DNA of 64,000 nt from a bacterium (GTDB lineage Bacteria > SAR324 > NAC60-12): the NCBI GenBank assembly GCA_965205865.1, contig CBDBHR010000030.1:1191866-1255865 (forward strand), written 5' to 3'. Below the pieces are notes generated by a model, which searched no databases, was not told the DNA's origin, and saw only the letters and a program-made list of their open reading frames with translations. Position numbers and translations under genes: made by a program. Below are positions 7,307-63,344 of the stretch, piece by piece; position 1 is the first letter of the stretch, and every line of letters starts with the position of its first letter.

Positions 7307-7505
7307 GAAGAATTCGGCAAAATCAAGAATTAAAAATTCCCAAAAACCTTCCCCTTTTCTCTGGGGAACGGAGATAAATTACCTCAACTAAAAGGTGGGC
7401 TTCAAGAAAAAAAGAAGAATTCGGCAAAATCAAGAATTAAAAATTCCCAAAAACCTTCCCCCTTTTCTCTGGGGAACGGGGATAAAGTACCCCAACTAAA
7501 GAGAG
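7307..7505. repeat. Tandem direct repeat, ~107-bp unit x2, in the divergent intergenic region
   Basis: gaagaattcggcaaaatcaagaattaaaaattcccaaaaaccttcccc(c)ttttctctggggaacgg.gataaa.tacc.caactaaa occurs at 7307-7395 and again at 7414-7502. Confidence 0.8.
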
Positions 7506-7678
7506 ATGTCAAAAAAAAAAAGAGGGAATTGGGATTGACTATTTTCTTTGATGATTTTATAAAAAAAATTGAATGGGACACCGCCCATCCCCCTTGAAGG
7601 AGTTGGGGGCCGTCTCACTCAAAGATTTCAACATATTCTAGTAAAAGTCAGCAGATACAACCATACAAGGAGAAAACA

Positions 7679-13129: not shown

Positions 13130-14030
13130 TAGGTAAGCTCATAATTTTCCCTTCCGTTCAAAACTTATCCTTCGCAATAAGCTTACCGGCGAGAACTGTT
13201 CCCATGCGCCACGCAGATAAGGCTTCGAGTCCTCCGGCAATGACTTGCCAGGCTTCTACGCTCTTTGCACTTCGATGGCGCATGCTTCTCCGTTGATATC
13301 CCATTCGGCTCCACGTCGACCGGACATCAGGTGACCACTGGGAATAGCTTCCAGGTGATTGGCAAGAGTTTCCGTCTTGATAAACTGATCAAATCGCGTG
13401 ACTGCTGTTTGCACGAATTGTGAAGTTTGATAACGAACATGAATACGCGCCATCACGTCGAACGCCTGCTCTTTTCTCATATTCTGTACTTTATTGACGA
13501 ATTCCCGGGCAAATCCTTCCTGTTGCAAGTCAATTGTCAGTTCCGTATTCAGGGCAACGGTCACATTGTTTTCCGTCTGCGCCAGTAAGCCTTCTTTTTC
13601 ATGACGTTGCAAAAGCACGTCTTCGGGTGCTAAGATAATAGTTTCTCCATCCAACTCCAATGTCGTCCGTTTGCCATCCCGCAGCCGAAAAATAGCGGAG
13701 GAATCGAGCTCCACAATGGTTCGGGCGACTTGTTTCATGCGAACTCCGAGCTTCGGTCCGAGCACACTGTAATTGGCCTTGGCGCTGTAAGTCACTAAAT
13801 CTTCTTCATTATCAGCCACGACGACTTTCTTGATATTCAACTCTTCCGTGATCAATTCTTCCATGTCGTTCAAAATCGCTACGGCTTCCGGGTCACGGGT
13901 CACCAGAAAAATGCTGGCAAGGGGTTGTCGTATTTTCAATTGATGCTTGTTACGCAAGGCGCGTCCCATGCTGACTGCCGAGAGCACCAATTCCATTTTC
14001 TTTTCGATTGCAGGGTCCCGATATTGGGGT
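13130..14030 (-). pseudogene. ileS: Duplicated 3' fragment of ileS (last ~246 codons plus 3' UTR), detached from the gene
   Basis: Nucleotide sequence 13130-14023 is near-identical to 17660-18550. ORF 13256..13996 equals the C-terminus of the 1044-aa IleRS. Homology stops abruptly at about 14023. Confidence 0.85.
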
Positions 14031-16999: not shown

Positions 17000-17196
17000 C
17001 CCGCAAGAACATGGATTTTAAAAAAAAACATTTTCATGTTCCTCTTTTTATTCAGAATTGCTCAACTCGAGTAAGAGTTAAAGCAGGGATGACAGGCTCG
17101 GTAATTTTCGAGCAATATTCACTGCTGTTTTTCCCAGAGCTTTCACTTGTTTCACCAAGGCGGCCTGATTGAGATTTTGTTGCGTCGCTTCCTGCA

Positions 17197-17658
17197 CTAG
17201 TGTATTGCCTGTTTAATACATTTGTATTATTGGTCATTTGGTAGACAGGTTTGAGTTTGTTGATAATTTCTTCGGCAGTTTTAGTCCAAACATATGGTTT
17301 TGGGTTGCGATTGTGCGCTTCGATGTAACTATGGATGGCTTCGGTCAACTCGAGCACGCTTTTGAAGGCGCCTCGCCGTCGCCACTTTCCAACGGAATTG
17401 CCGCTGGTTCCAAGCGTTTTGGCAATCTCTTGATTCTTAAGGCCATCAGCAGCCAACAGGATGATGCGCGCACGAAGAGCGTCTCGCATCGCTCCGGTCT
17501 GACGGCGTGCGGTTTTGCTCAATTCATCCCGTTCTTCCCGGGTCAGTTTTATACTTGGCGCTTTCCTAATGCTGTCTCCATATATGCAAATAAAAAGACA
17601 GCTCTAGTATAGCAAACCAAGGAATTATTTACACATTAATAAAAGAGCGACACACTAG
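17197..17658 (-). mobile_element. Internally deleted IS630 derivative (MITE-like), ~462 bp
   Basis: Both termini are identical to the 914-2097 element, but about 725 bp of the interior (corresponding to ~1090-1815) is missing. The remnant ORF fuses the transposase N-terminal HTH to its C-terminal tail (17052..17522). Confidence 0.8.
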
Positions 17659-21411: not shown

Positions 21412-23919
21412 ATGTCGCAAGAAGATCGATATTCCGAGGTAAACACCCCCATCCAAATTCCCATGCTGCCCATGAGAGACATTGTGGTTTTCCCCCGCAT
21501 GACCGCGCCTTTTTTCATCGGGAGAGCCCCCTCCATGGCTGCCTTGGAAAAAGCTCTGGCAACCGATCGCCGGGTTTTTGTAGTAGCGCAGCAGGATCCC
21601 ATGATTGAATCACCCTCTGCGAAAGATTTGTTCCGGATGGGGACCATAGGCCAGATCCTCCAGATCATGCGTCTACACAATGGCACCATCAAAGCCCTGT
21701 TCGAGGCCAAAACTCGCGGCATGCTGATTGAAGCCAGTCTGACAGGTTCTTTTTATTCGGCACTTGTCGAACCCCTCCCGGAAGCCGTGTTTCATACTCC
21801 GGAATTGGTTGCATTGAGCAAAAATGTCCGGCATGAGTTGAAACGCTATCTCAAAGAAGTCAAAAAGCACACTGAACGTATTGAAAAGCTGGCCCTGGAT
21901 AAGGAAGAACCCTGCCACCTGGCCGACCGCATTGCGCCGCTATTGAACATGGATCTGAAGAAAAAACAGGAACTCCTGGAAATTTCAGATGCTCAAAGAC
22001 GACTGGAAATCGTTTACGAGCGGATGCTGGAAGAAAATGAATTGAAAAAAGTGGAGCGCAAACTCAAAGAACGCGTCCAAGGGCAAATAGGCAGAACTCA
22101 AAAGGAATACTATCTCAACGAACAAATCAAAGCTATCCAAAAAGAGCTGGGACAAGGAGAAGACGGAAAAGCGGAAATTGAAGAATACACCAAAAAAGTC
22201 GCAGACACCCCGCTTTCCAAGGAAGCCGGAGAGGTGGCTGTAAAGGAAGTAAAAAAACTGAAAATGATGCAACCGATGTCGGCAGAGGCCAATGTGGTGA
22301 GGAATTATCTGGATTGGTTGCTGGGCATGCCCTGGGGTGAAAAAACCGAAGATCATTTTGAATTAGGAGATGCCGAGAAAGTTCTCGACGTCGAGCATTA
22401 TGGTTTGAGAAAAATAAAAGAGCGGATTATTGAATATTTAGCGGTTGCGCAGAAAGTAGGACAGATGAATGGTCCGATCATTTGTCTGGTGGGGCCTCCG
22501 GGTGTGGGGAAGACCTCTCTTGCCCGCTCAGTCGCCAAAGCGCTTGGCAGAAAATTCGTACGCATGAGTCTGGGAGGGGTGCGGGACGAAGCAGAAATCA
22601 GGGGGCACCGTCGTACTTACATTGGCGCTCTTCCCGGAAAAATCATTCAGTCGGTCCGTAAGGCGAAAAGCACCAACCCTCTGATGCTGCTCGACGAGTT
22701 GGACAAGATGACCTATGGAGTTATGGGCGACCCTGCTGCCGCCTTGTTGGAAGTGTTGGACCGGGAACAAAACCACTCTTTCATGGATCACTATCTGGAG
22801 ATTGAATTCGATTTATCCGATGTCCTTTTCTTTTGTACCGCCAACGTCGACCAAAATATCCCTCTCACTTTGAAAGATCGGATGGAAGTCATCACTTTAT
22901 CCGGATACACCGAATTGGAAAAAGAGCACATCGCCGCACGGCATTTGATTCCCAAACAGATTGAAGAAAACGGATTGAAAAAGGAGCAGATCAGGTTCCA
23001 GCGTAAAGGATTGACAGAAATCATCCAGCGCTACACGCGAGAAGCCGGGGTGCGGGATCTCGAACGCTCCATTTCCAAGGTCTGCCGCAAAGTAGCCCGC
23101 CAGATTGTACAAAAGCATGGGGCTAAAAACCCCTCCCCCGGCCCCTCCCTCAAGGGGAGGGGAGAACTGATCGATAAAACAATTGTGGTGACGGAGAAAC
23201 GAATTCACGATTATCTGGGAGTTCCATGTTATAAACACAAGGAAATCGCAGAGAAAAATGAAATTGGAACCGCGTGCGGACTGGCCTGGACATCGGTAGG
23301 TGGTAAATTGCTCACCAATGAAGTGTGCCTGATGAAGGGAAAAGGCAATCTGAAATTAACGGGGCAATTGGGCGAAGTGATGAAAGAATCCGCAAAGGCC
23401 GCTTTGAGCTATGTGCGCAGCAATGCGAATATGCTCGGAATTTATTCATCGGTCTTTCAAGAAACCGACATCCATATCCATGTTCCGGAAGGTTCCGTTC
23501 CCAAAGATGGTCCATCGGCTGGAATTACCATGACCACCTCCTTGATAAGCGCCTTCACCAGCATTCCTGTGAGAAAGGAGGTTGCCATGACCGGAGAAAT
23601 CACCTTACGGGGAAGAATTTTGCCCATTGGTGGACTGAAAGAGAAATTGTTGGCTGCCAAACGGGGAGGAGTTCAAACCGTCTTGATTCCTGATAAAAAT
23701 GAAAAAGACTTGGTAGAGATTCCGGTTGAGATCAAAAAAGAGTTGACGATTGTCCCTGTCACTTTTGCGGAGGATGCCTTGAAAGTGGCGTTGGAACGTC
23801 TACCAGTTGCCGTGGAAGATCCTCCGAAGGAAGAAGAAAACGCCCGTGAAACTGCAACCAACGTGATTGCGGAGGAATCTTTCACTGAGCATGAAGTCCC
23901 CAGTTTTCCTCACAATTAA
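21412..23919 (+). CDS. lon: ATP-dependent Lon protease (endopeptidase La)
   Basis: N-terminal Lon domain, Walker A GPPGVGKTS, and protease S-K dyad context PKDGPSAGIT...KEK. Contains a 15-aa insertion derived from the palindromic repeat at 23125-23168. Confidence 0.95.
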   Translation: MSQEDRYSEVNTPIQIPMLPMRDIVVFPRMTAPFFIGRAPSMAALEKALATDRRVFVVAQQDPMIESPSAKDLFRMGTIGQILQIMRLHNGTIKALFEAKTRGMLIEASLTGSFYSALVEPLPEAVFHTPELVALSKNVRHELKRYLKEVKKHTERIEKLALDKEEPCHLADRIAPLLNMDLKKKQELLEISDAQRRLEIVYERMLEENELKKVERKLKERVQGQIGRTQKEYYLNEQIKAIQKELGQGEDGKAEIEEYTKKVADTPLSKEAGEVAVKEVKKLKMMQPMSAEANVVRNYLDWLLGMPWGEKTEDHFELGDAEKVLDVEHYGLRKIKERIIEYLAVAQKVGQMNGPIICLVGPPGVGKTSLARSVAKALGRKFVRMSLGGVRDEAEIRGHRRTYIGALPGKIIQSVRKAKSTNPLMLLDELDKMTYGVMGDPAAALLEVLDREQNHSFMDHYLEIEFDLSDVLFFCTANVDQNIPLTLKDRMEVITLSGYTELEKEHIAARHLIPKQIEENGLKKEQIRFQRKGLTEIIQRYTREAGVRDLERSISKVCRKVARQIVQKHGAKNPSPGPSLKGRGELIDKTIVVTEKRIHDYLGVPCYKHKEIAEKNEIGTACGLAWTSVGGKLLTNEVCLMKGKGNLKLTGQLGEVMKESAKAALSYVRSNANMLGIYSSVFQETDIHIHVPEGSVPKDGPSAGITMTTSLISAFTSIPVRKEVAMTGEITLRGRILPIGGLKEKLLAAKRGGVQTVLIPDKNEKDLVEIPVEIKKELTIVPVTFAEDALKVALERLPVAVEDPPKEEENARETATNVIAEESFTEHEVPSFPHN
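23125..23168. repeat. 45-bp GC-rich palindromic repeat, copy 1 (inside the lon CDS, in frame)
   Basis: aaaaacccctcccccggcccctccctcaaggggaggggagaactg, with the cccctccctc/ggggagggg hairpin. Translates as NPSPGPSLKGRGEL within Lon. Confidence 0.75.
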
Positions 23920-23920
23920 G

Positions 23921-23966
23921 AAAAACCCCCTCCCCCGGCCCCTCCCTCAAGGGGAGGGGAGAACTG
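23921..23966. repeat. 45-bp GC-rich palindromic repeat, copy 2 (immediately after the lon stop)
   Basis: Near-identical to copy 1; may also act as the lon terminator hairpin. Confidence 0.75.
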
Positions 23967-23975
23967 GGGGATTGG

Positions 23976-25288
23976 TCAAAGTTCTTGTAGGGCCAGTTTA
24001 ACGGCATGCGCAGTTTTCTCCAAATCCGCTTCCGAGTGTACCGTGGATATAAAGAGGGATTCGAAAGCGGAGGGGGCGAGATAGATTCCTGCCGCCAACA
24101 TTTCTTTGAAAAACTTCTTAAATCCCGCTACGTCCGTTTGTAAGGCATCTTGATAATTGCGTACCGGGTTTGCGGCAAAGAAAAAACCAAACATCCCTCC
24201 CATGTGATGGGCTTGAAAAGGGAGGCCTGCTTTTTCGAACAGACTCGTCATTTCATTGACCAGCCACGAACATTTTTGGCTGAGATCCGCATAAACTCCT
24301 TCACATTTGAGCAATTGAAGGGTGGCAATGCCCGCTGCTACCGCAATGGGATTGCCCGACAAGGTGCCTGCCTGATAAACCGGGCCGACAGGGGCAACTT
24401 GCAACATGATATCCTGACGGCCGCCATACGCGCCCACAGGTAAACCTCCTCCAATCACTTTGCCAAAAGTGGTGAGATCCGGCTGAACGTTTAAAAGAGC
24501 TTGCGCCCCTCCGTAATCCACGCGGAAACCGCTCATCACTTCATCAAAATAAGCACCATCCCTTCCCGATTACACAAATTCCGCAATCCCTGCAAGAATC
24601 CATGTTCCGGTAAAATCATTCCCATGTTTCCCGCCACCGGCTCGACGATCACTGCCGCTATTTCCTGAGGATGAAGATCCAGCAGTTCGATCACCGAATC
24701 GAGATCATTGTAACGCGCCAACAGAGTCAACTCCACAAATGCTTGTGGCACTCCGGCAGAATCAGGTTTGCCCAAAGTGGTGGCACCCGAACCGGCTTGT
24801 ACGAGTAAGGGATCCACGCTGCCGTGATAACATCCTTCGAACTTTATGATCTTGTCTTTTCCGGTATAGCCACGCGCAGTCCGGATTGCCCCCATAGTGG
24901 CTTCACCGCCGGAGTTGACGAGCCTCAGAATCTCGATGCCCGGCACGGCTTCTTTGACCATCTCCGCTAAAACGACCTCGTTTTCAGTAGGGGCGCCGAA
25001 TGAGGTACCGGCATGCAGCGCTTTTTCCACTGCCTCCATCACCGCTTGATGACAATGACCTAAAATGAGGGGTCCCCAAGAGCCCACATAGTCGATGAAC
25101 TCGTTGCCATCAATATCATAAATTTTTGATCCTTTGCCTCGCTCAATGAAAAGGGGGTGTGTCTCCACGGATTTGAATGCGCGAACGGGACTGTTTACGC
25201 CTCCTGGAATCGATAGTTGCGCACGCTCGAAAAGTTGAAGAGATCGACTGAATTTCATGGCTATGTCCTTATCAAAGAGAGCCTGCAA
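23976..25288 (-). pseudogene. hemL: Glutamate-1-semialdehyde 2,1-aminomutase, interrupted by a -1 frameshift in a T/A run (about 24545-24549)
   Basis: The N-terminal piece (24536..25288) and C-terminal piece (23976..24539) together match HemL end-to-end. At the junction LILMK* and MSGFRV should read [12 protein letters not shown]; one extra T restores the frame. Possibly a sequencing artefact. Confidence 0.8.
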
Positions 25289-25310
25289 CGCGGGCTGCTG
25301 GTAATAACGC

Positions 25311-25356
25311 CACTCCCCCCTCCCCTAACCCCTCCCTCGTGGGGAGGGGGACTCCT
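25311..25356. repeat. 45-bp GC-rich palindromic repeat, copy 3 (divergent variant)
   Basis: cactcccccctcccctaacccctccctcgtggggagggggactcc, lying between the M16 peptidase and hemL genes. Confidence 0.65.
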
Positions 25357-25441
25357 TCCGAGCCATAGAAAAGCAAGAAAAGACCCTCGAGCAATGGATC
25401 GACTGATTGGGAAAGATTTGTCACAAAATGATAGCAGCAGA

Positions 25442-28400
25442 CTATGGATTTTGTTGCGAATCTTTAAATTGGTCAAAGGATTGGACTATGATTCCCGACC
25501 CTGGAATATCCGTGTGTGATTGACCCACCATGCGAATTGCCAAATAGGGATTTTCTTCAAGAGAGAGCGTGTTTTCCAAAATCTCCACCACTTCGTCCCG
25601 TGTCACTTCCTCAATGGCTTTGATATTTTCACTGACGTAATCAAAGTCTGCGTCTTTTTCAAAAGCTTGATAAAACAGGAAATTCGCTTCTTCGGAAATC
25701 GTGGCGTATTTCTCCAGTTGGGAATTGATCACGGATTGCCGGAAATTTTCAAATTCACCATCAGGCAACTGTTTAAACTCTTCAATGAATTTGGGAATAT
25801 AGGCTTCTACTCGTTCTTGCAGCAGACCTGGAGGATATTTACCGGATTGCACCATCAACATCCACCCCAGGGTTTTTTCCATCCATGATATATCGCCAAA
25901 AACGGTATATCCCAACTGTTGCTCGGTCCTCAATTCACTATATGCCCAGGAGCGCAAAGCGGTGGCAATGATCAGCATCGCTCCCCGCAGCCGGGGATTG
26001 CTTGCTCCTACCTGAACTTCAAAGAGCAAGGCGGAATTGTCGATTTTCACTTTTTTGGAAAAAATGAAATCTTTGCTATTGTTGATCCGCACAATTGTAT
26101 TCTCAAAAAGTTCCTCTCGGGGCAGAGGCTGTCCCTGCAAATTTCGCAACATTTCCTGAAGGGCTTGCCGGGCCTTTTCTTTTTCCAGATTTCCATAGAC
26201 CACTCCCTGGACGTAGAAAGAGCGATAGAGTGTTTTTGTATAAGCTATCAAATCATCCAAGGTGATGTTTTTAATTACTTCCTGATATTGGTCTATTGAA
26301 AATTTCTTTTCTTCCATGAGCAATGAACGCGCATAAAACGCTTGCTGATAGGCTTGATTGAACTGGAAATTCTGGTAGATACGCAGACGCCGCTCCTTCA
26401 AGGATTGAAACGTTGCTTCATCAATGGTGATCTCCTGCAGTTTGGTCAACAGGATTTTAGAAAGAGTGAAAATGCGATCTGAATAGCCACTGACATTGAC
26501 TGTGATTCCCTCTTTACCGGTTCTGATCCCAAATTCCAATCCGGCAATCCGCACCGCATAGCCAAATTCGTTCAATCCTTCATTGATGGCATTGGTATAC
26601 AATTGGGAGAGCACCGCTGATTTCGGAGAACTGTAAACCTGAGGCGTATGAATCAGCAATGTCAGTTCCGCTTTCGGGGTGTGAAAGCGTAAATCCTGCT
26701 GAAACCAGACTTCCCCTTGCTCATTGTCCAGGATTTTTTGAGGACGGGCCATGGCGTGTTTGAAGATCAACTTGCGAAATGGTTGAATCTCTTCCGCACG
26801 GCCCGGGAATAACTGCTCTTGAAATTCTTGCCAGGACGCCCAATATTTTCCCTGATGCGTCTCCAGCACATTGAGGATGGGCTGGGGAATTTGCTCTTGT
26901 TTCAATCCAACCAGGGACTGATAGGCGAGCATAAACTGAGTGATTGAAGAAACCAGATTCAGATTTTCCGGGATAAAAATATTCTTTTCCGGCAAATCCA
27001 TTTCTTCATGAGGCTGGACTTTCTGCAGCGTACGAATGAAATCCGGATTGTCTTCGGTATAAGAATAATTGGCTCCGAAATAAGGCTCGGTCTTGTCTGT
27101 TTTCAAGCCCTTGGCCATCAAAGTGACCAGCATGTTGTCCGCAGTGAGGCGAAACAGAATGCTGTCGAAATGGTGAGGTTCGTAGCGATCATAAAGAAAT
27201 GGCGCCGTTTCTACCAAGTCCATTGGAATGTAGTGGAGTAAGGAAGCAAAGCCGATGACCAGATCCGTGCCATCGGTTTTTTCCTCAAAACGATAATCGA
27301 TCACCGCCATCTGCTCGAGTTCCTCAAAAAGCTCTTCTTGAAAGCCCGTGCGTCTTAAAAGTCGGATGTATTGAAAAATCCGTTTGACGACCGTTTCATA
27401 TTGTTCCAATCCTTTCGGCGTCAGTTGCACTGTAACAGTAAATCGCCCATAGGCTTTTCCGGAAGAACCTCCTGCGGAAAGACCTGTGGCCAGACCTTCC
27501 TTTTTGAGCAAGGAGAGGAGGCTTCCTTTTCCTTCGTGACCAATGAGGTGTCCTAAGGCATAGCTGGGTTTGGTTTCATAGAGCCTTTGGATACTGGGCA
27601 GCGGAAAGATGAGTTTAAGGGAACGGGTATCTTTGAGCGGTTCAATCCGGACCACCCGAAACTGATCGCTTTTCTTCAAATAAGTTTGAGGGATCCTGAT
27701 TGGACTGACCGGCAGATTGCGAATCTGGCTGAAGTACGTCTCCACCCATTCATGCAGAGTGTCCAGATCCTGCTTTCCCAAAACAGCCAGTGTCATCGAG
27801 TTCGCAGAATAGTATTTGTCGTAAAATTCCAGCAAATCCTCTCTGGTGGTGTTTTGCAAGGTCGCCACGTTGCCAATACGAAAATTTTGTGCCGGGTGAT
27901 TGGGGGTAAATAAGGAAGCCTCCACTTGCGACACGCGCCAATGATCGCTGGGTCGCTTTTGGGTATATTCTGACTCCACCACTTCCAATTCACGCTTGAC
28001 ATATTCCGGATTGAATAGAGGGGCGATAAAAAACTGGGCAAAGCGATCGAGCGCTTCTTCCAAATGCTCCCCGGCCACTTGAAAATAATAGTTAGTCGTC
28101 TCGTTCGTTGTGAATGCGTTGCTGAATCCGTCATGACTGGTAAGAAAATCTTTGTCGTCGTCAACATCCGGGTATTTTTCAGTCCCTAAAAACAACATGT
28201 GTTCTAAAAAATGGGCTATTCCCTGATGCTCGGGGGGATCGCTCAAAGATCCGACTGCCACACTGAGCGACGCCGCTCCGTGATGCGCGGTGGGATCAGA
28301 AACTAAAATGACCTTCAAGGAATTGGGAAGGATAAATCGACGATATTGCCGCTGCTCATAACGTGGGTCCGTTCTGTCTGTTGCCCAGGTGTTTAAATGT

Positions 28401-28459
28401 TGAGAAGGAAAAAGAAAGAAAAACACAAAAAATATAAATAGATATCTCATGGTATTCAT
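25442..28459 (-). CDS. Secreted M16-family (pitrilysin/insulinase-like) zinc metallopeptidase
   Basis: Signal peptide, inverted zinc motif HFLEH, ~1000 aa two-half clamshell architecture. Confidence 0.85.
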   Translation of the reverse strand: MNTMRYLFIFFVFFFLFPSQHLNTWATDRTDPRYEQRQYRRFILPNSLKVILVSDPTAHHGAASLSVAVGSLSDPPEHQGIAHFLEHMLFLGTEKYPDVDDDKDFLTSHDGFSNAFTTNETTNYYFQVAGEHLEEALDRFAQFFIAPLFNPEYVKRELEVVESEYTQKRPSDHWRVSQVEASLFTPNHPAQNFRIGNVATLQNTTREDLLEFYDKYYSANSMTLAVLGKQDLDTLHEWVETYFSQIRNLPVSPIRIPQTYLKKSDQFRVVRIEPLKDTRSLKLIFPLPSIQRLYETKPSYALGHLIGHEGKGSLLSLLKKEGLATGLSAGGSSGKAYGRFTVTVQLTPKGLEQYETVVKRIFQYIRLLRRTGFQEELFEELEQMAVIDYRFEEKTDGTDLVIGFASLLHYIPMDLVETAPFLYDRYEPHHFDSILFRLTADNMLVTLMAKGLKTDKTEPYFGANYSYTEDNPDFIRTLQKVQPHEEMDLPEKNIFIPENLNLVSSITQFMLAYQSLVGLKQEQIPQPILNVLETHQGKYWASWQEFQEQLFPGRAEEIQPFRKLIFKHAMARPQKILDNEQGEVWFQQDLRFHTPKAELTLLIHTPQVYSSPKSAVLSQLYTNAINEGLNEFGYAVRIAGLEFGIRTGKEGITVNVSGYSDRIFTLSKILLTKLQEITIDEATFQSLKERRLRIYQNFQFNQAYQQAFYARSLLMEEKKFSIDQYQEVIKNITLDDLIAYTKTLYRSFYVQGVVYGNLEKEKARQALQEMLRNLQGQPLPREELFENTIVRINNSKDFIFSKKVKIDNSALLFEVQVGASNPRLRGAMLIIATALRSWAYSELRTEQQLGYTVFGDISWMEKTLGWMLMVQSGKYPPGLLQERVEAYIPKFIEEFKQLPDGEFENFRQSVINSQLEKYATISEEANFLFYQAFEKDADFDYVSENIKAIEEVTRDEVVEILENTLSLEENPYLAIRMVGQSHTDIPGSGIIVQSFDQFKDSQQNP

Positions 28460-29110: not shown

Positions 29111-29602
29111 TTGCTATTCTTATGAACTCGAGAGTGACGAATTCTTGTCAGTCAATGAAATTAAAATCACTGACTGATACACATTCTCATTTCCGCGAAA
29201 GCGCATTGGATCAACTTAAGAGTCCGTATATTATTTCAGTTACTTGGAGTCAAAAATAGAATTCCACACCCCTGGAAAGATGGGCCAGGGGAGCGGGAAT
29301 CCGTAGTGTTTTCATAGGCTAATGAAGACTGGATCCCGCATCAAGTGCGGGATGACACGAGAATTCGTAACTCAAGAGCAATGAGAGTAGGCGCGATGAG
29401 ACGTAGAATCAATAGCAGGCAGTTAACTTCTGACAAAAGAGGAATTATGAAAGATAAAATCAAAAAAAATATCAATCAACTTCTGAAAAAGGAGAAATTA
29501 TGCGACATCCAATAAATCAAATCCAATTCACTTCTAATAAAGAAGAAGCAATGGAACATCCAAGGAATCTTAACCCAAATCAAAGTGAAAGAGGAGGAAT
29601 CA

Positions 29603-31359
29603 TGGAAAAAAGTATAACCAGAAAAATCAATTCATTGTTGTTGACCCTCATCCTGATGGTGACCGTCCTGTGGGTCGGGTCGGTCGTTGCTGCTGAGAAA
29701 GAGATGGTCACCGACCCCACCACCGGTAAAATGGTGAGCGCACCGGAGTATGGCGGGACATTCAGCTGGGGCGATGCGCTCGAGCCTCCGCACTGTGACC
29801 CCTACCTGCATGGCCATGGGCCAAGGGTCATCGATGAAGTTGGAGAGAAGCTGGGCCTCGGGAACTGGGCAGTAGATCGGGCCGAACATAGCTTTTCAGA
29901 CCCGTGGATCCCTTCCCATTTCATGACAGGGGCGCTGGCGGAAAGCTGGGAGATGGCTGACCCACTGACCTATGTCTTCCACATTCGCCAGGGCATTCGC
30001 TGGCACGACAAGGCGCCGATGAATGGTCGGAAGTTCATTGCCCAGGATGTCGTCTATAACTTTCACCGTTATACAGGTACGGGCAGCGGCTTCAGCGAAC
30101 CGAGCGCCGGTGCCGGCAATCTCGCCTCAATACCATTCGAATCGATAACGGCCAGAGACGATGCGACGGTTGTCTTCAAACTGACGAAGCCAAAGGTAGA
30201 CCTGCCTGACGTTCTCCTGGTCGACTGGTATGCGTGGATATTACCCCCTGAGGTCATCGAGCAGCATGGCGACCTGACGGACTGCGACAACATGGTCGGC
30301 ACCGGGCCCTATATGCTGACCGAATGGGTCAAGGGCAGCTCCCTGACCTATTCCAAGAATCCTGACTACTGGGACTTCGACGAAAAATACCCGCAGAACC
30401 GCTTACCCTACATCGACCAGATAAATCGGTTGATCATGCCGGATAAGGCAACATCGCTGGCGGCGCTGCGCTCGGCCAAGCTCGATTACGTCGGTCAGCC
30501 TGGCATCAATCAGTTACAAGCGTCCCAGGTAGAGAGCCTCGAGCGCACCAACCCCGAAATCGTAGTATGGCCGTGGGCCTTTCGGTCGGAGACCTCCGCT
30601 GCATTCAACGTGCGCCACCCGTCGCCCTTTCAAGACATCCGGGTGCGTAAGGCCATGCAGATGGCCATTGATATCGAAACCATTAACAAGACCTACTTTG
30701 GGGGCTTTGGAATGACGACGCCCCAAGGGATTATAGGGGATGGTCTGAAGGGGTACTTCGTCCCATTCGAAGAGTGGCCCGAAGAGACCAAGAACGTCTT
30801 TACTTATGACCCGGAAGGGGCGATGCGGCTTCTGGCTGAAGCGGGCTATCCCAATGGCTTCAAGGCCGTCCATAACCCTTTGCCCTCATGGGGGCTGGGC
30901 TATCAAGAGATAGTCGTTGAATACTGGGCTGCGATTGGCGTTGACGTAGAGATCAAGACGCATGAAGGCACTCAGTTGACGGGATTAATAACTGACGGTT
31001 CGTATGAAGGCATGACCTTTATGGATCTCGGCAATGACACCTCGCCTCCCTTGCTGCTAAACCGGCTTCAAATCGGGGCGGTGTGGGGCCGCACCGGACA
31101 CCAGGACCCCGTGATGCAGTCCAAGGTTGAAGCCGCTATGGCCGCTCCCACCCTCGAGGAGCAGCAGCGGCTGACCGCGGAGGCAGATTTGTACATGATC
31201 GAGCAGCATTGGTACATATGGGGTCCCAAAGTTCCCCAATTCGACGCGATCCAGCCGTGGGTGATAGGTTTCAACGGTGAAATCTTTGTTGGCAACTCAC
31301 ATGCGCCGTTCTCCCGTCTGTGGATCGATAGTGCGCTGAAGAAAGAAATGGGGCATTAG
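29603..31359 (+). CDS. ABC transporter substrate-binding protein, family 5 (cluster 2)
   Basis: GAGGAGG Shine-Dalgarno 6 nt upstream of the MEKS start; signal peptide; EYGGTF, KAMQMA and WIDSALKKEMGH signature. ~60% GC versus ~45% for the backbone. Confidence 0.85.
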
Positions 31360-31464
31360 GAGCTGTGTTAAAACCTTGTTCCCCCTCTCCTGGTGGGAGG
31401 CAGAGAAGCAGTTTGGCCACAGGCGTGGCCAGTAAAAACTACTGAACGCGGGAGGGGGCATCAT

Positions 31465-32421
31465 ATGAAAGCCTATCTCATCCGGCGGGTATTGCTGGTA
31501 ATCCCCACCCTGTTTATCCTGAGCATCCTGGTCTTTCTCTCGGTGCGCTTCATCCCCGGCGACGTCGTAGATGCCATGTTGGGTCAGCTGCAGTCGACAA
31601 TAGGGAGGATAGACCGTGCAGCCGTTGAGCGTCGGCTGGGACTGGACGTGCCGGTCTGGGAGCAGTATGGACGCTGGATCGGCCAGATTCTCCGGCATGG
31701 CAGCCTGGGCAAATCCCTGTGGGGCGAATGGACGGTAGAGGAGAGGATACTAGCTAGCCTGCCGATCACCCTTGAGCTTGGCGTCCTGGCCATCGTAATC
31801 GGGCTTGTGATCGCGCTGCCCGTGGGTATCTACTCGGCGATGCGCCAGGATACGGTCGGCGATTACGCGGGGCGTTCCCTGGCCATCATCGGCCTGGCCA
31901 CGCCGAACTTCTGGCTGGCCATTATGGTGATACTCTACCCGGCCATCTGGTGGGGCTGGACGCCGCCGATGCAGTGGGTTCCTTTCACCAAAGACCCGCT
32001 GGGGAATCTCGGGATATTCCTCATTCCCAGCGCGATTCTGGGGACAGCCATGGCCGCCGCCACCATGCGCATGACGCGCACTATGATGCTGGAGGTGCTC
32101 CGGCAGGACTATATCCGCACCGCTTGGTCCAAGGGCCTCAGGGAGCGGGTCGTGATTATCCGGCACACCATCAAAAATGCCCTCATCCCGGTGGTAACTC
32201 TGATCGGCCTGCAGTTGCCGATCCTGGTAGGGGGCGCGGTGATCATGGAGAATATCTTCAACCTGCCGGGACTCGGTCGTCTCATGCTGGATGCCCTGCA
32301 ACACCGGGACTACCCGGTGGTCCAGGGAACCAACCTGTTTTTCGCGACCGGGGTGGTGCTGCTCAATCTTTTGATCGACCTGATATATCCCTATTTGGAC
32401 CCCAGAGTCAGATATGAATAG
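31465..32421 (+). CDS. ABC transporter permease, DppB-like (cluster 2)
   Basis: MKAYLIRRVLLVIPT...MRMTRTMMLEVLRQDYIRTAWSKGL; Shine-Dalgarno GGAGGGGG. Confidence 0.85.
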   Translation: MKAYLIRRVLLVIPTLFILSILVFLSVRFIPGDVVDAMLGQLQSTIGRIDRAAVERRLGLDVPVWEQYGRWIGQILRHGSLGKSLWGEWTVEERILASLPITLELGVLAIVIGLVIALPVGIYSAMRQDTVGDYAGRSLAIIGLATPNFWLAIMVILYPAIWWGWTPPMQWVPFTKDPLGNLGIFLIPSAILGTAMAAATMRMTRTMMLEVLRQDYIRTAWSKGLRERVVIIRHTIKNALIPVVTLIGLQLPILVGGAVIMENIFNLPGLGRLMLDALQHRDYPVVQGTNLFFATGVVLLNLLIDLIYPYLDPRVRYE

Positions 32422-32464
32422 TCGTTATGCTTCTGGTAAATATAGGTTTGAGATTCGTCTGTCA

Positions 32465-32885
32465 GAAGTAGTCCCTGAGGGACGAAAGGAAGTAGCCCAG
32501 CGATTCATCGCTGGGAACAAAAGATAGTCTCCTTCAAAGTCCCGGAGGGACGATACAACAATGAGGTTTCATGTCCCATTCCTACATCAGCAATCATCTT
32601 CATGGTGTCTTTTGCGCAAAAAACCGAGTTGAGATGATGACTCCTGAAATCAAAAAGCGCCTTTTTCCTTATTTGACATCATGAGCGTTATATTTGGGAG
32701 TAACTCGCTGGATCGAAGAAGTGTCGTCCCTCCGGGACTAGCTGAGGAGGAGGGGGGTTCCTTTCCCAGCGATGAATCGCTGGGCTATTCCCTTTCGTCC
32801 CTCTGGGACTAGCTGAGGAGGGGGTTCCTTTCCCAGCGATGAATCGCTGGGCTATTCCCTTTCGTCCCTCCAGGACTGCATTATA
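32465..32885. repeat. Cluster of short hairpin repeats inserted between the two permease genes of cluster 2
   Basis: Hairpin cccagcgattcatcgctggg at 32496, and its reverse complement twice (32766, 32833) inside a tandem ~70-bp unit. Multiple gtccctNNgggac palindromes. Confidence 0.7.
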
Positions 32886-32899
32886 GAAAAATCGAGAAC

Positions 32900-33868
32900 A
32901 TGAGCGACAGCATAGAGACGCCATCCCCGATCATTGAGTCCAAGCGACGGGGCCGGTTTGTGGATTTCTTCATCAGGCTGATCAGGGAAAAGCCCCTCGG
33001 GACGTTTGGCGGGATAGTCACCTTGATCTTTATTTTGTTGGCGATCTTTGCCGAGCTTCTGGCGCCTTATCCCTATCGGGAAATACACCTGGCCGACATA
33101 CTAAAAGGCCCAGCCGCCCAGTATCTGCTGGGGACCGACCATTTGGGGCGAGACCTGTTGAGCCGCCTTCTCTACGGGGCTCGTATTTCCTTGACCGTCG
33201 GTCTGGCCGCGACGGTGCTGAATGTGGTGGTCGCTGTCCTGATTGGCGGCACTTCCGGATTCCTGGGGGGGAAAGTGGACCTGGCGGTGCAGCGCTTTGT
33301 CGATGCCTGGATGGCCTTCCCGGGGCTGCTCTTGTTGTTAACCATCATGTCCATCGTGGGACAAGGCCTCCTCCAGATCATCGTGGTGTTGGGGATTACC
33401 GGAGGTGTCGGCGGCTCCCGAGTCATCCGAGGCGCCGTGGTGGGCATCAAAGAGAATGACTATTTCCTGGCAGCCAGGGCCGTAGGCACTCCCACGCGCC
33501 ATATCCTGACCCGCCATGTGCTGCCCAATATTATGGCGCCCCTCATCATCATCTTCTCGATCAACATTGGCGGCGTAATCATCGCCGAGGCGTCGCTGAG
33601 CTTCCTGGGATTCGGGCTGCCCCTCAAGGTTCCCAGCTGGGGAGGAATGCTCAGCCGGGAAGGGCGGGAATTCATGGAGCGGGCGCCCCGGCTGGCGCTC
33701 TGGCCGGGGCTGTGCCTGACGATTGTCGTCTACTCTCTCAACATGTTCGGAGACGCCATGCGAGACCTGCTGGATCCCCGGCTGCGAGGCGGACAGGGAA
33801 GTTACGGCGCCACGGGGAAACGCAAACGAGGTCTCTTGGCCCGACTGATCAACCCTTTCAACTGGTAA
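32900..33868 (+). CDS. ABC transporter permease, DppC-like (cluster 2)
   Basis: LLGTDHLGRD, SLTVGL, GDAMRDLLDPRLRG. Confidence 0.85.
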   Translation: MSDSIETPSPIIESKRRGRFVDFFIRLIREKPLGTFGGIVTLIFILLAIFAELLAPYPYREIHLADILKGPAAQYLLGTDHLGRDLLSRLLYGARISLTVGLAATVLNVVVAVLIGGTSGFLGGKVDLAVQRFVDAWMAFPGLLLLLTIMSIVGQGLLQIIVVLGITGGVGGSRVIRGAVVGIKENDYFLAARAVGTPTRHILTRHVLPNIMAPLIIIFSINIGGVIIAEASLSFLGFGLPLKVPSWGGMLSREGREFMERAPRLALWPGLCLTIVVYSLNMFGDAMRDLLDPRLRGGQGSYGATGKRKRGLLARLINPFNW

Positions 33869-33931
33869 GCGCGCAATATGAAATATACTCGCCTGAATCG
33901 AATGGTCTCTTAAGAGACCTCAATAGTAACC

Positions 33932-36749: not shown

Positions 36750-36985
36750 TAACCTGAGTTCGACATAAATCTTCAATAATATGAGTATCCTAGCGTATAT
36801 GTCATCCTCGCGAAACTTGTCCCCGCGAAAGCGGGGAGCGGGGATCCGGATTTCAGTCTGGCTGCATACCTCCGGATTCCTTCCCTGCGTACGCAGGGAT
36901 CTCGCAGGAATGACAAGGTTTCTCTAAGATATGAAGATTCCATAACATATTGAATTTATTAAATTCTTATCTCGAACTCAGGTTA
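36750..36985. mobile_element. MITE copy A (~236 bp, Tc1/IS630-like, TA-flanked), inverted relative to copies B and C
   Basis: TIR TAACCTGAGTTCGACATAA ... TTATCTCGAACTCAGGTTA. Internal palindromes ccctgcgtacgcaggg and ccccgcgaaagcgggg. TA dinucleotide at both junctions. Confidence 0.8.
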
Positions 36986-37702: not shown

Positions 37703-37743
37703 AAGCCTTACCGTGCTGGAGGTTATTGGTAATAAACCTGAGT

Positions 37744-37984
37744 TCGAGATAAAAATTTAATAAATTCAATATGTTATGGAATCTTCATATCTTAGAGAAA
37801 CCTTTTCATTCCTGCGAGATCCCTGCGTACGCAGGGAAGGAATCCGGAGGTATGCAGCCAGACTGAAATCCGGATCCCAGCTCCCCGCTTTCGCGAGGAC
37901 AAGTTTCGCGGGGACAAGTTTCGCGAGGATGACATATACACTAGGATACTCATATTATTGAAGATTTATGTCGAACTCAGGTTA
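37744..37984. mobile_element. MITE copy B (~241 bp)
   Basis: Same element as 36750-36985 in the opposite orientation, with a short internal duplication (gacaagtttcgcg x2). Confidence 0.8.
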
Positions 37985-47223: not shown

Positions 47224-48384
47224 ATGAATCATTCTGACAATGTCCATCGACTGCAACTGAAAGACAAGGAAGTGCTTCTCATTGGGACAGCCCACATTTC
47301 TCGAGAAAGTACCAACGAAGTGATGCAGGTGATTGAACACGAACAGCCCAAGACGGTTTGTGTCGAACTGTGCAAGTCTCGATATGAAGCTCTTTCCCGC
47401 AAAGACCACTGGAAAAGCATGGACATATTCAAAGTTATCCGGGAGAAAAAAACTTTTTTACTCCTGGCCAATATCATCCTGGCTTCTTTTCAAAAAAGGC
47501 TGGGGAACAAATTGGGCATTCAACCCGGCCGGGAAATGATCGTAGCCATTGATTCGGCAAAAGCCATTCAGGCAAACATTGTGCTGGCAGATCGAGACGT
47601 ACAAACCACCTTTCTGAAAACCTGGCGCATGCTTCCTTTTCGGGAAAAAGTGAAAGTGCTCATGCAGATGATGATGAGTGTTTTTGTCTCGGAGGAAATC
47701 AGCCGAGACGATATCGAAAAAATGAAGACCCAGGATGTGTTGACAGAAACCATGGAGATCTTCTCCCGTCAATCACCAATGATGAAAAAGGTTCTCATTG
47801 ACGAACGAGATCAATATCTTGCAGAAAAAATCAGGACGGCGCCCGGGGAAAAAATCGTCGCGGTGGTGGGCGCAGGACATGTACCTGGAATAAAAAAAGA
47901 AATAAACCACTCGCACGACTTACCTGTCTTGGAACAGGTACCATCTCCTGCGCGGTGGGGAAATTGGTTGAAATGGGGTATTCCTGCCTTGATCATCTCC
48001 TTGATTGCTTATGGTTTTTTTCTCGCCGATTGGAATGTTGGCATTGAAATGGTAAAACGCTGGTTTTTGATCAATGGGATTTTGTCGGCTCTCGGAGTAG
48101 TACTGGCGGCAGGTCATCCTTTGACCATCCTTTCTGCTTTCATTGCCGCCCCTTTCACGTCTCTGAATCCTACCATCGCAGCAGGTTGGGTTGCCGGGTT
48201 GGTCGAAGCGTTTGTGCGTAAACCACAGGTTCGGGATTTTGAAAACCTCATGGAGGACATCACCCATATCTCCGGATTCTGGAGAAACAAAGTCACCCGT
48301 ATTCTTCTGATTGTTGTTTTTGCGAATGTCGGCAGTATGGTGGGGACATTCATTGGCGGTGGGGCCATCATCGAACTATTGTAA
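47224..48384 (+). CDS. TraB/GumN-family protein with C-terminal TM segments
   Basis: LIGTAHIS...TVCVELC...VVGAGHV motifs of the TraB family. Confidence 0.75.
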   Translation: MNHSDNVHRLQLKDKEVLLIGTAHISRESTNEVMQVIEHEQPKTVCVELCKSRYEALSRKDHWKSMDIFKVIREKKTFLLLANIILASFQKRLGNKLGIQPGREMIVAIDSAKAIQANIVLADRDVQTTFLKTWRMLPFREKVKVLMQMMMSVFVSEEISRDDIEKMKTQDVLTETMEIFSRQSPMMKKVLIDERDQYLAEKIRTAPGEKIVAVVGAGHVPGIKKEINHSHDLPVLEQVPSPARWGNWLKWGIPALIISLIAYGFFLADWNVGIEMVKRWFLINGILSALGVVLAAGHPLTILSAFIAAPFTSLNPTIAAGWVAGLVEAFVRKPQVRDFENLMEDITHISGFWRNKVTRILLIVVFANVGSMVGTFIGGGAIIELL

Positions 48385-48595
48385 CCTGAGTTCGAGATAA
48401 GAATTTAATAAATTCAATATGTTATGGAATTTTCATATCTTAGAGAAACCTTGTCATTCCTGCGAGATCCCTGCGTACGCAGGGAAGGAATCCAGAGGTA
48501 TGCGGCCAGACTGAAATCTGGATCCCCGCTTTCGCGAGGATGACATATACACTAGGATACTCATATTATTGAAGATTTATGTCGAACTCAGGTTA
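48383..48595. mobile_element. MITE copy C (~213 bp)
   Basis: TAACCTGAGTTCGAGATAA...TTATGTCGAACTCAGGTTA with TA on each side. Same internal palindromes as copies A and B. Confidence 0.8.
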
Positions 48596-58500: not shown

Positions 58501-59055
58501 GCAGAGCCGATTATCTCTGACCACGCCCAAAGGACGTGGTTTCATCAGATAAAATAAATCGAATGTCCAAAGTCCAGGAGGGGGAATAAAGTTGTTGTTT
58601 TTTTCTGAGGGTTAAAGAATTTCTGCTGGTCTTTTGCTTTCTCTTGTGATAGTTCTCGAGAAATCGTCTTTGGCTGAAGGTTTTATTTCAATTTCGCTCA
58701 TATTTATTTAGCCGAAAGTCATGTAAAACATCATATCCTCACCAGAGGATTTTTAGAAACTGTCAACGGGGAATTGAAAAGTGCCAAAAATGTTGACTTC
58801 CGTATTTCTATATGAAAAAGTATTTTCGTTGATCATAAGAATACACTCATGAATGAATGAGTCGCCATATTTAAAAAAATCTTGATACGTTTGCAGAGCG
58901 ATTATAATATTTTATTCCAGGGACGGAAAAGCAATAATGAGATCCTTCGCTTTGCCGCTCGGCGTACCGTCAGGATGACATGAAAGTCTGAAATTAACCC
59001 GTTTCAAGTATAAAAAATCTTGATAATGAGGTGGATATGAGAGTAAACTCAAAAA

Positions 59056-59123
59056 CCAGTTCCCAGTTCCCAGTTCCCAGTTCCCAGTTCCCAGTTCCCA
59101 GTTCCCAGTTCCCAGTTCCCAGT
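59056..59123. repeat. Microsatellite (CCAGTTCC)x8.5
   Basis: Perfect 8-bp tandem repeat read directly from the sequence; degenerate gttccc copies continue to about 59230. Confidence 0.9.
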
Positions 59124-59365
59124 AATAAGTTCCGAGCACCAAGCTCCCAATCACAAGTTCTACCTCCTTATATTATCTCGACTTCAGGGAGAGATCCCTA
59201 AGATTCCTCGTTCCCAATTCCCCGTTCCGGGAACGGAACGGCAATGGGGAATTTGGAAAATCATCGACGCCTGAGTGCGTCGGTTTATGGTTCATTGCCC
59301 AATCCTGGAGCCAATGAATCGGTTTTTTGATCACTTGAAAATGAAGGAGACCCAATGTGTAGAGC

Positions 59366-59525
59366 AATCGTCGAGAACATGCTTTCTGGAACGAAAGCAG
59401 GTTTTAAAGCAACCCGCAATCTTGTTTTTAATCAAAAAGCAAAAAGGAGCACCATGAACCGTCAAAAAAGTAGAGAAATCGTCGAGAACGTGCTTTCGGG
59501 AATCAAAGCAGGTTTTAAATCAATC
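59366..59525 (+). repeat. Duplicated ~47-bp hairpin-containing segment in the leader of SBP-3
   Basis: aatcgtcgagaacatgctttctggaacgaaagcaggttttaaagcaa and aatcgtcgagaacgtgctttcgggaatcaaagcaggttttaaatcaa, 111 bp apart; each carries a tgctttc/gaaagca stem. Confidence 0.6.
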
Positions 59526-59558
59526 CTTAATTATGAACATCCATTCGAAAGGAAAAAG

Positions 59559-61328: not shown

Positions 61329-61597
61329 CAGGCCGACTGGAAGTACTTATGGACCGGGCAGTACTGCCCGGTCCACTCTAGTACTGCTGTCAGAAAATGG
61401 TTTGACCTTCTGTTAAGGTAATAATGAGTCCTGTTTGTCATTCCGGGCGAAGACCCGGAATCCGGGGGACTTACCCTAGAACTCCCAGATCCCGGATCAA
61501 GTCCGGGATGACACAGAATGGGTCAATCACTTCGTAACGCCTGTACCAGGATACACCGCGTTTCCCTGCCAATTTCAAAAATGATGAGGTCCGTCCC

Positions 61598-62605: not shown

Positions 62606-63344
62606 ATCAAAGCGACGGGGCCGGCTGTCGGATTTCTTCATCAGGCTGCTCAAGGAGAAGCCGCTCGGTACTGTCGGTCTGGCCGCGACGGCGCTGAATG
62701 TGCTCATCGCAGTCCTGATCGGCGGCACTTCCGGATTCATTGGCGGGAAATTCGACCTGGTGGTGCAGCGCTTTGTCGATGCCTGGATGTTTCCCGGGAC
62801 TGCTGCTCTTGTTAACCATCATGTCCATCGTGGGGCGGGGTTTGCCACAGATCATCCTGGTCCTGGGGGTCACCGGAGGCATCGGCGGCTCCCGAGTCAT
62901 CCGAGGTGCCGTAGTGGGCATTAAAGAGAATGACTATTTTCTGGCAGCCCGGCCGTAGGCACTCCCACGCGCCATATCCTGATCCGGCATGTCCTGCCCA
63001 ATATCATGGCGCCCCTGATCATCATCTTCTCGATCAACATTGGCGGCGTTATCATTACCGAGGCATCGCTGAGCTTCCTCGGATACGGGCCGCCCGTCGA
63101 GTTACCCAGCTGGGGTGGCATGCTCAGCCGGGAAGGACGCACCTACATGGAGATGGCGCCCTGGCTGGCGCTCTTTCCCGGTCTTGCCCTGACGATTGTC
63201 GTCTACTCCCTCAACATGTTCGGCGATGCCATGCGGGACCTGCTCGATCCCCGGCTTCGGGGTGGTGAGGGTCGTTACGGCACCGCAAAAGGGAGACGCA
63301 AAAGAGGTCTCCTGGCCCGATTGATCAACCCTTTCAACTGGTAA
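62571..63344 (+). pseudogene. DppC-like permease (cluster 3), inactivated by an internal ~186-bp deletion, indels near 62790 and a premature stop at 62955
   Basis: Alignment to the cluster-2 paralog: KPLGT joins directly to VGLAATALNV (losing TM1 and the GTD motif); a frame change follows VDAWM; AARP* replaces AARAVGTPTRH. The remaining frame (63006..63344) still encodes the conserved C-terminus. Confidence 0.8.

Follow-up and report, generated by a model that had tools for sequence, protein, structure and literature searches.

A GC-rich repeat with BoxC/PIT/TM_ECO architecture inserted in frame within the lon gene of a SAR324 bacterium

The lon gene of an uncultured SAR324 bacterium (GTDB lineage Bacteria; SAR324; NAC60-12) contains an in-frame insertion of a short GC-rich repeat, and two further copies of this repeat lie just beyond the gene, on either side of hemL. 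The DNA analysed, called the window below, is a stretch of 64,000 nucleotides from the forward strand of contig CBDBHR010000030.1 (positions 1,191,866 to 1,255,865; assembly GCA_965205865.1); coordinates are those of the window unless another contig is named. The copies share the architecture of the BoxC, PIT or TM_ECO elements, and we consider it likely (probability about 0.75) that the repeat is a short non-autonomous GC-rich element of this class whose insertion Lon tolerates. BoxC/PIT/TM elements have been known in Escherichia coli for decades. What is new here is the location and behaviour of one of them, the series of alleles found within a single species (empty, full and internally deleted at the same lon codon) and the breadth of the family.

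The insertion in lon and its alleles

The lon gene (21412..23919, + strand) is an intact open reading frame (ORF) encoding an ATP-dependent Lon protease of 835 aa. Its identity is supported by 8000 Lon matches, the nearest named of which come from SAR324 / Lambdaproteobacteria, and by comparison with E. coli Lon 6u5z (E=6e-242). In an alignment with the 30 closest Lon proteins, the peptide GAKNPSPGPSLKGRGEL (Lon residues 570-586) is present only in the window protein and in P0001, which is 99% identical and comes from an independent assembly. The other 29 proteins (P0002-P0030) show a gap of 17 residues at this position; P0002 is 89% identical to the window Lon and the 28 others range down to 70%. 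Relatives without the repeat also lack the segment, and the in-frame position of the repeat within lon, first proposed in a preliminary description of the sequence, is borne out by the intact ORF, by these orthologues and by exact empty sites. The size given there (45 nt, 15 aa) has to be corrected: comparison of filled and empty alleles defines an insertion of 51 nt and 17 aa (copy 1, 23119..23169, + strand), which consists of GGGGCT followed by AAAAACCCCTCCCCCGGCCCCTCCCTCAAGGGGAGGGGAGAACTG.

The lon alleles were surveyed in the 90%-identity cluster of the window Lon, and the DNA loci L116 and L123-126 were aligned to establish the boundaries. The full insert is found in nine distinct Lon sequences of 835 aa, on separate contigs; one of them, P0126, encoded on a 1.38-Mb NCBI/ENA contig, is identical to the window Lon. 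Two sequences of 831 aa carry a shortened insert, GAKNPSLKG(R/K)GEL, and the corresponding DNA has lost 12 nt comprising the first C-box and the spacer (see below for the anatomy of the element). The empty allele (818 aa, junction QKH|IDK) is represented by one sequence on three contigs from three samples (L123/L124/L125). The alleles therefore differ by +0, +39 and +51 nt, and every one of them is in frame. Comparison of filled and conspecific empty alleles places exactly 51 nt between GCAT and ATCG, and neither a target duplication nor junction microhomology was found at the lon site when the filled allele was compared with L123-125. In its behaviour, this member of the class is a discrete unit whose boundaries are exact and which is not accompanied by a target duplication.

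A pattern search of the window with the 34-nt core CCCCTCCCCCGGCCCCTCCCTCAAGGGGAGGGGA gave two exact matches, at 23130-23163 and 23927-23960, and the relaxed hairpin pattern CCCCTCCC-N-GGGAGGGG retrieved a third copy at 25329-25349, with 0 matches in shuffled controls. A repeat search grouped the intervals 23125-23169, 23922-23966 (98%) and 25312-25356 (67%) into one family, in agreement with the earlier report of a second copy after the lon stop and of a diverged copy between hemL and the gene of an M16 peptidase. All three copies are on the + strand and span 2.3 kb: one inside lon, one 3' of the lon stop and one upstream of hemL. Copies 1 and 2 are identical at 44 of 45 positions, have the same orientation and are 797 bp apart. 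No fourth copy or half-copy was found anywhere in the 64-kb window.

Copy 2 (23921..23966, + strand) is an insertion of 46 nt with a 1-nt G ambiguity at the junction, as defined by the empty site TTAA|GGGGGATTGG of L123-125 and of the sister species locus L115. It fills the spacer between the convergent stops of lon (23919) and hemL (23976). Its alleles measure 0, 46, 60 and 61 nt, the 60- and 61-nt variants being carried by L126 and L116. In these two contigs, copy 2 (L116 12516-12570; L126 12503-12560) is lengthened by 14-15 nt (GCGCCGAGGAACCCC) where the first C-box meets the spacer, which displaces the second G-box of the opposite strand and would disrupt the triplex or G-quadruplex (G4) register.

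Copy 3 corresponds to a segment of 71 nt (25290..25360, + strand) delimited by alignment of the filled, empty and sister sequences; it contains a diverged element with its core at 25317-25349, a TTA second loop and an ACGA first loop. It is not a simple insertion, since the 71 nt stand in place of 19 AT-rich nt of the empty allele. It lies about 32 nt upstream of the probable ATG of hemL (25258) and downstream of the stop of the M16-family peptidase gene (25442). Of these two neighbours, hemL (23976..25288, - strand) encodes glutamate-1-semialdehyde aminotransferase and is flanked by copies 2 and 3; the peptidase gene (25442..28459, - strand) was assigned from its ORF, with Pfam families taken from the syntenic L116. 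The hemL gene of the window is interrupted at about 24545, where the loss of 1 nt from an A5 run breaks it into two ORFs, and L116 and L123-126 carry an intact hemL of 427 aa; the frameshift is either a homopolymer sequencing error or the mark of a strain-specific pseudogene.

The polarity of the events can be read at site 3, where the 19-nt stretch of the empty allele is homologous to the sequence of the sister species; because of this resemblance, the empty state is taken as ancestral. The sister locus is syntenic (ileS-lon-hemL-M16) and is without all three copies. The lon segment is a genuine repeat insertion and not an ancestral block of Lon.

The sequence and the position of the insert suggest why Lon tolerates it. 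Its 51 nt are a multiple of three, and the lon frame crosses them without a stop. Of six possible frames, four are open in this insert, five in the copy 2 unit of 45 nt and four in copy 3, and every open frame of the element encodes a Pro/Gly/Ser-rich peptide. Set against the Lon proteins of E. coli and Thermus, the insert coincides with a short, gapped and variable stretch (about residues 560-566 in E. coli), which separates the final helix of the AAA+ lid from the strand leading into the protease domain. In an AlphaFold model (mean predicted local distance difference test score, pLDDT, 70.5), residues 571-587, which follow helix 548-570 and precede strand 591-593, are modelled as coil with pLDDT <50, and the structural mapping suggested at the outset thus places the insertion in a variable coil.

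The lon genes of the window and of L116, both insert-bearing, differ by 2% at the DNA level, with 27 synonymous and 10 nonsynonymous codons, 0 of them in the insert. The ratio of nonsynonymous to synonymous polymorphism (pN/pS) of about 0.11 indicates that the insert-bearing gene is under purifying selection. The insert-bearing Lon is expected to stay functional, because the insert is in frame, free of stops and rich in Pro/Gly/Ser, and forms a predicted coil in a poorly conserved surface loop. It had been left open whether lon tolerates or exploits the repeat. Our verdict is that of a tolerated passenger, not of an exploited module, given the coexistence of the three kinds of allele (empty, partial and full) and the location of the insert in a disordered loop.

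Anatomy and distribution of the element family

Two boxes of the C4TC4 type and a single complementary G4AG4 box make up the unit, together with a spacer of 3 nt (CGG or TAA) and a loop of 5 nt; the boxes follow each other in the order C4TC4 / C4TC3 / G4AG4. The element had been called palindromic, which is true only in part: fold prediction gives an 8-bp GC hairpin (CCCCTCCC/GGGAGGGG) with a 5-nt loop, but an additional C-box precedes this hairpin and is predicted to be able to pair with the same G-box. On the minus strand, copies 1 and 2 read CCCCTCCCC-TTGA-GGGAGGGG-CCG-GGGGAGGGG (core of copy 1 at 23130..23162, by pattern match), and copy 3 has ACGA and TTA at the positions of TTGA and CCG. 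The second G stem mirrors the first: GGGAGGGG read 3'>5' aligns with GGGGAGGGG read 5'>3', A opposite A, which would put G*G.C and A*A.T triads in register, 8 in all. The sequence CCCCTCCCCTTGAGGGAGGGGCCGGGGGAGGGG is a candidate for hairpin, triplex or G4 folding: as single-stranded DNA the unit may fold into the 8-bp hairpin, and its G-rich strand may also adopt a purine-motif triplex or a G-quadruplex built from four tracts. Rfam has no family matching the element; its matches were all at chance level (E>3).

This anatomy is that of the elements named TM_ECO in E. coli, which have also been described as PIT, as BoxC and, under the names HPG1/HPG2, as a G-quadruplex-hairpin-duplex switch (Holder et al. 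2015, PMC4666352; Kaplan et al. 2016, PMC5100583; see also Hoyne & Maher 2000/2002, cited in these papers). All three copies fit, on the minus strand, the pattern CCCCTCCCC N3-6 GGGAGGGG NNN GGGGAGGGG, with a C stem of about 9 nt and a complementary G stem, and a hairpin of 8-9 bp is predicted. TM_ECO elements form two subtypes with TTA (type A) or CCG (type B) as second loop (PMC4666352); the second loops of copies 1, 2 and 3 are CCG, CCG and TTA, so that both types are present. Deleted or mutated variants at the same locus in related strains, another trait of TM_ECO, are seen in the alleles of lon and of copy 2. TM_ECO elements are reported to be always intergenic in E. coli MG1655 (PMC4666352, PMC5100583); copies 2 and 3 are intergenic as well, and copy 1, inside lon, is not. 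The copy number is 3 in 64 kb, with none in the flanks of the L116 and L123-126 contigs. The E. coli copy located between deoB and deoD, CCCTCACCC-CGG-CCCTCTCCC-TCAAG-GAGAGGG-TGAAAAC, has the spacer and loop of the window copies and a similar right flank, and its stems covary, both sides being changed.

The distribution of the family was analysed by searching GTDB genomes with the pattern CCCCTCCCC NNN CCCCTCCCTC NN GGGGAGGGG, which has 28 fixed bases. The exact core is present in >114 genome stretches belonging to many phyla. The matches listed include Acetobacteraceae, Rhodospirillaceae, Nevskiales, Tepidisphaeraceae, Planctomycetales, Bdellovibrionales, Syntrophaceae, Omnitrophota, Abditibacteriales and the sister SAR324 species, in which one copy occupies an unrelated intergenic site. 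Among 146 listed copies, which are dominated by one genome, the free loop bases are AA in 138 and the preceding base is A in 135, and the following base is always a purine. The core also occurs on 17 plasmids, those of Geobacter, Sphingomonas and cyanobacteria showing the same layout, and in three IMG/VR viral contigs. The class thus reaches far past Proteobacteria, onto plasmids and viral contigs. A SAR324-specific 30-mer gave 0 matches in JGI metagenomes, and the cultured-phage collection contained no meaningful match to the element.

Very many copies with an identical core are present in the Acetobacteraceae metagenome-assembled genome (MAG) SMAG_U5148 (L001, L003, L006, L017, L019, L023 and others). 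They are often paired in inverted orientation, at a spacing of 64 nt and on the two sides of a conserved CATCCGCGGTCGGTGGATG palindrome, with some tandem partial duplications, and this arrangement is an expanded composite form of the element family. A different hairpin, CCCTCTCC-N10-GGAGAGGG followed by TTATTCTTTTT, occupies the lon-hemL spacer of a distant SAR324 bacterium (L122, GCA_015231825.1, 12452-12506); it is terminator-like, and its boxes resemble the E. coli-type motif.

In-frame copies in other genes were sought by analysis of ORFs and of GC content at third codon positions in fetched loci. Most copies of the family are intergenic or lie within spurious high-GC ORFs, and three are in real genes. 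In a Bdellovibrionales MAG, the TsaD protein gives one Pfam TsaD match that runs through the insert, and a gap of about 17 residues appears opposite it in Salmonella TsaD (3zet). In the RibD protein of a Tepidisphaeraceae MAG, the copy is in the interdomain linker, between the deaminase tail and RibD_C. The third case is an ORF for phage head morphogenesis. These three copies are read in three different frames and orientations. A search of protein databases with a 45-aa concatemer of three insert variants yielded no candidates. BoxC/PIT/TM-type repeats can thus sit in frame in conserved housekeeping genes of several phyla, like the Rickettsia palindromic elements (RPEs), and Pro/Gly-rich stretches of the form PSPxPSLKGRGE, PLPxPLPQGEG or SPPLEGGxGGG in conserved proteins should be recognized in annotation as repeat insertions.

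Origin of the copies and other features of the window

Several observations weigh against the proposed assignment, or against movement of the element in this genome. The element-free loci L123-125 are nearer to the window (99.2-99.6% identity) than the element-bearing L116 (98.0%) and L126 (97.7%), and a tree of single-nucleotide polymorphisms (SNPs) places the window with the element-free strains; presence and absence are therefore not clonal, and recombination or repeated events are required. Neither terminal inverted repeats nor a target duplication nor an adjacent transposase was found at the window copies. The sole transposase detected, when ten window ORFs were scanned with Pfam, is IS630-like, 20 kb away, with nothing tying it to the element. 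The flanks of five other contigs of the species contain no copy outside the 2.3-kb trio, and dispersal and mobility in this genome are thus only putative. The published TM_ECO consensus, CCCTCNCCC N3-6 GGGNGAGGG N3 GGGNGAGGG, has 0 matches in the window; the similarity to E. coli copies is short, with a BLAST E-value of about 1 on its own; and the fold z-scores, from -0.4 to -2.3, are weak, since stable folds result from composition alone. Of the mobility attributed to the repeat in the preliminary description, what stands is the presence or absence of copies between strains; no target duplication, terminal repeats or transposase was found with it.

Among the variable sites, the window sides with the empty strains at 52 and with the filled strains at 44, and several of the 44 cluster beside elements 1 and 3. 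Shared derived SNPs lying between the elements argue against the import of all three in one block. On the basis of these patterns, the three insertions appear to be segregating alleles, either redistributed by recombination or acquired and lost on more than one occasion. Seamless excision in the element-free strains, which are the closest to the window, was set aside, the empty allele of site 3 being homologous to the sister sequence; the conflict with the SNP tree would then be a matter of recombination.

A history confined to this locus is a possible but rather doubtful alternative. The three copies would then result from local templated duplication, copy 1 being made from copy 2 by template switching or break repair, and the likeness across phyla would come from convergent selection for hairpins rich in C and G. 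The 44/45 identity and common orientation of copies 1 and 2 agree with such a process, as do the restriction of just three copies to 2.3 kb, with none in the other sequence of the species examined, and the failure to find a target duplication or a transposase. However, the lon junctions are without microhomology, copy 1 has 6 extra nt (GGGGCT) that are missing beside copy 2, and the copy of the sister species is at an unrelated locus. Convergence is moreover not an easy explanation for a spacer, a loop (AA in 138/146 listed exact-core copies) and an RGAA right flank common to unrelated phyla, plasmids and E. coli. It is even less probable that the insert has been co-opted, either as a nucleic-acid regulator within lon (a pause site, an attenuator or a template-strand G4) or as a functional Lon loop, with copies 2 and 3 tuning hemL. 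Insert-bearing alleles do form the majority of the distinct sequences of the cluster, and the insert is invariant between the window and L116; the minus strand of copy 2 ends in ...GGGGAGGGGGTTTTTC, a G-box followed by TTTTT directly after hemL, and copy 3 is close upstream of the hemL start. Closely related strains nevertheless retain alleles that are empty or partly deleted, and the peptide is predicted to be disordered. A consensus terminator scan makes no call at copy 2, terminator-like sites are not enriched, and terminator and promoter scans gave nothing beyond chance at the elements; the E. coli relatives are reported to show neither promoter nor terminator activity, nor any link to gene function (PMC4666352).

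The notion that the segment is an ancestral Lon linker lost by the relatives, or an artefact of assembly or sequencing, is effectively refuted. At least one probable indel error (the hemL A5 frameshift) is indeed present in the window, and this region of Lon is variable among orthologues; yet 29 orthologues down to 70% identity are without the segment, the inserted DNA has a nearly identical intergenic counterpart at a distance of 797 bp, the same 51 nt are found on independent contigs from several samples, and the empty alleles match the junctions of the sister species.

We thus favour the insertion of a BoxC/PIT/TM-type repeat that the host protein tolerates. In part of a single SAR324 species, the lon-hemL-M16 region would have received discrete copies at three sites. 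The lon copy would have survived because its 51 in-frame nucleotides bring no stop and add a Pro/Gly/Ser coil that landed in a variable surface loop. The motif itself is unstable locally, as the 12-nt deletion in lon and the 60/61-nt variants of copy 2 show. The locus offers a handle on how such motifs move and on whether triplex, G4 or hairpin potential drives local instability. As a tentative extension, with the odds rather against it, BoxC/PIT/TM-type repeats could be a pan-bacterial form of discrete mobile DNA, which inserts without target duplication and, in many phyla, repeatedly seeds surface loops in essential proteins (Lon, TsaD, RibD, phage head proteins). The mover might then be a single-strand-specific enzyme or structure-driven replication or repair, and the mostly stop-free frames would give a Pro/Gly-rich coil. 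If this were true, the filled, partial and empty alleles of SAR324 would be the first natural system for tracking the movement of the element.

Other repeats and signs of rearrangement are present in the window. The IS630-like transposase gene (DDE_3 + helix-turn-helix, HTH) is at 930-2060, and a truncated, HTH-only copy is found near ileS at 17052-17522 (stretch noted to 17944). A second fragment of the C-terminal DUF5915 of ileS, about 97% identical, is located at 13256-13996. These insertion sequence (IS) copies and the DUF5915 duplicate are signs of IS-mediated rearrangement upstream of ileS, where synteny with related strains ends. An imperfect tandem repeat of a 93-nt unit (7332-7424 / 7440-7532, 76% identical) contains a TTCCCC...GGGGAA hairpin and is unrelated to the lon element. 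Direct repeats of about 260 nt (37735-37984 and 48383-48595, 95-100%; a third, partial, at 36750-36985) bracket a 10.6-kb segment of lower GC content (0.44-0.47) and may be the boundaries of an inserted element; no tRNA was found in the 64-kb window. Two paralogous ABC operons of the Opp/Dpp type, each with a binding protein and two permeases (29500-33900 and 59355-63400), have 74-89% DNA identity and are about 30 kb apart. A (CCAGTTC)n tract of ~12-17 units (59042-59160), about 200 nt upstream of the second substrate-binding-protein gene, could be phase-variable.

Comparison with known repeat families

The element had been described as REP-like, an attribution that does not hold. REPs (repetitive extragenic palindromic elements) and the mosaic elements built from them (BIME) resemble it as short (20-40 bp) GC-rich hairpins, mostly extragenic and often between convergent genes, which also lack a target duplication (Di Nocera et al. 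2013, PMC3733652). However, the GTAG or CGTC tag is absent from the ends of all three copies on both strands, and the window element has a third box that REPs lack. REP and BIME elements are moved by RAYT transposases (Y1 HUH); with the 64 kb covered, no Y1 transposase of the RAYT type was found among the ten window ORFs scanned with Pfam, the only transposase being the IS630-like DDE_3 gene. The REP/RAYT assignment was rejected on the missing tags; the architecture is that of BoxC/PIT/TM_ECO.

Assignment to MITEs (transposable elements of the miniature inverted-repeat kind) or to RPE-type repeats was also rejected: there is no target duplication, the ends AAAAAC... and ...GAACTG are not inverted repeats, and the length is 45-51 nt, compared with about 100-200 bp. 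The in-frame fusion at permissive surface positions of conserved genes (Lon, TsaD, RibD) is nevertheless a trait of that group. The RPE, ERIC and Correia repeats are likewise small repeats found in frame in conserved housekeeping genes (Ogata et al. 2000; PMC2229807, PMC10969869), and the proteins that receive RPE-type insertions are still functional, the insertions being apparently neutral (PMC2229807, PMC10969869). RPEs differ in being 100-150 bp long, AT-rich and genus-specific, with terminal inverted repeats; the window unit has 45-51 nt, is extremely GC-rich and occurs in many phyla. The in-frame insertion of small repeats, presented earlier as uncommon, therefore has precedents, but such a location appears to be unreported for the BoxC/PIT/TM class.

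The repetitive potential G-quadruplexes of Methanomicrobiaceae, which have an adjacent C-tract and show a hairpin/triplex/G4 equilibrium in vitro (Chashchina et al. 2021, PMC8044849), offer a further parallel. They are interspersed, possess two G-boxes and a complementary tract of the C3TC3 type, and about half of them lie between convergent genes. They differ in being archaeal and entirely intergenic, with the C-tract 3' of the G-boxes, that is, in mirrored order; homology is not claimed. The formation of a triplex or G-quadruplex in vitro has been reported for both the E. coli (PMC4666352) and the archaeal (PMC8044849) sequences.

The closest known system is TM_ECO. Both elements have about 37-45 nt and, on the G-rich strand, the same order of a 9-nt C stem, a 3-6-nt loop, a G stem, a 3-nt loop and a mirror G stem. 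The CGG spacer and the TCAAG loop are also present in some E. coli copies, together with an (A/T)GAA right flank; inverted pairs of copies occur in some genomes; and the usual place of TM_ECO, between operons and near 3' ends, is that of copy 2. The local instability of the motif in related strains matches the E. coli literature, in which the motif is reported not to be tied to mobile elements (PMC4666352). The window boxes, in contrast, are C4TC4/G4AG4 and not CCCTCNCCC/GGGNGAGGG, and the family to which the window element belongs includes an intragenic in-frame copy and occurs on plasmids, on viral contigs and far outside Proteobacteria. Judging from these sequence comparisons, the element is best regarded as a variant of the class rather than as a TM_ECO member in the strict sense.

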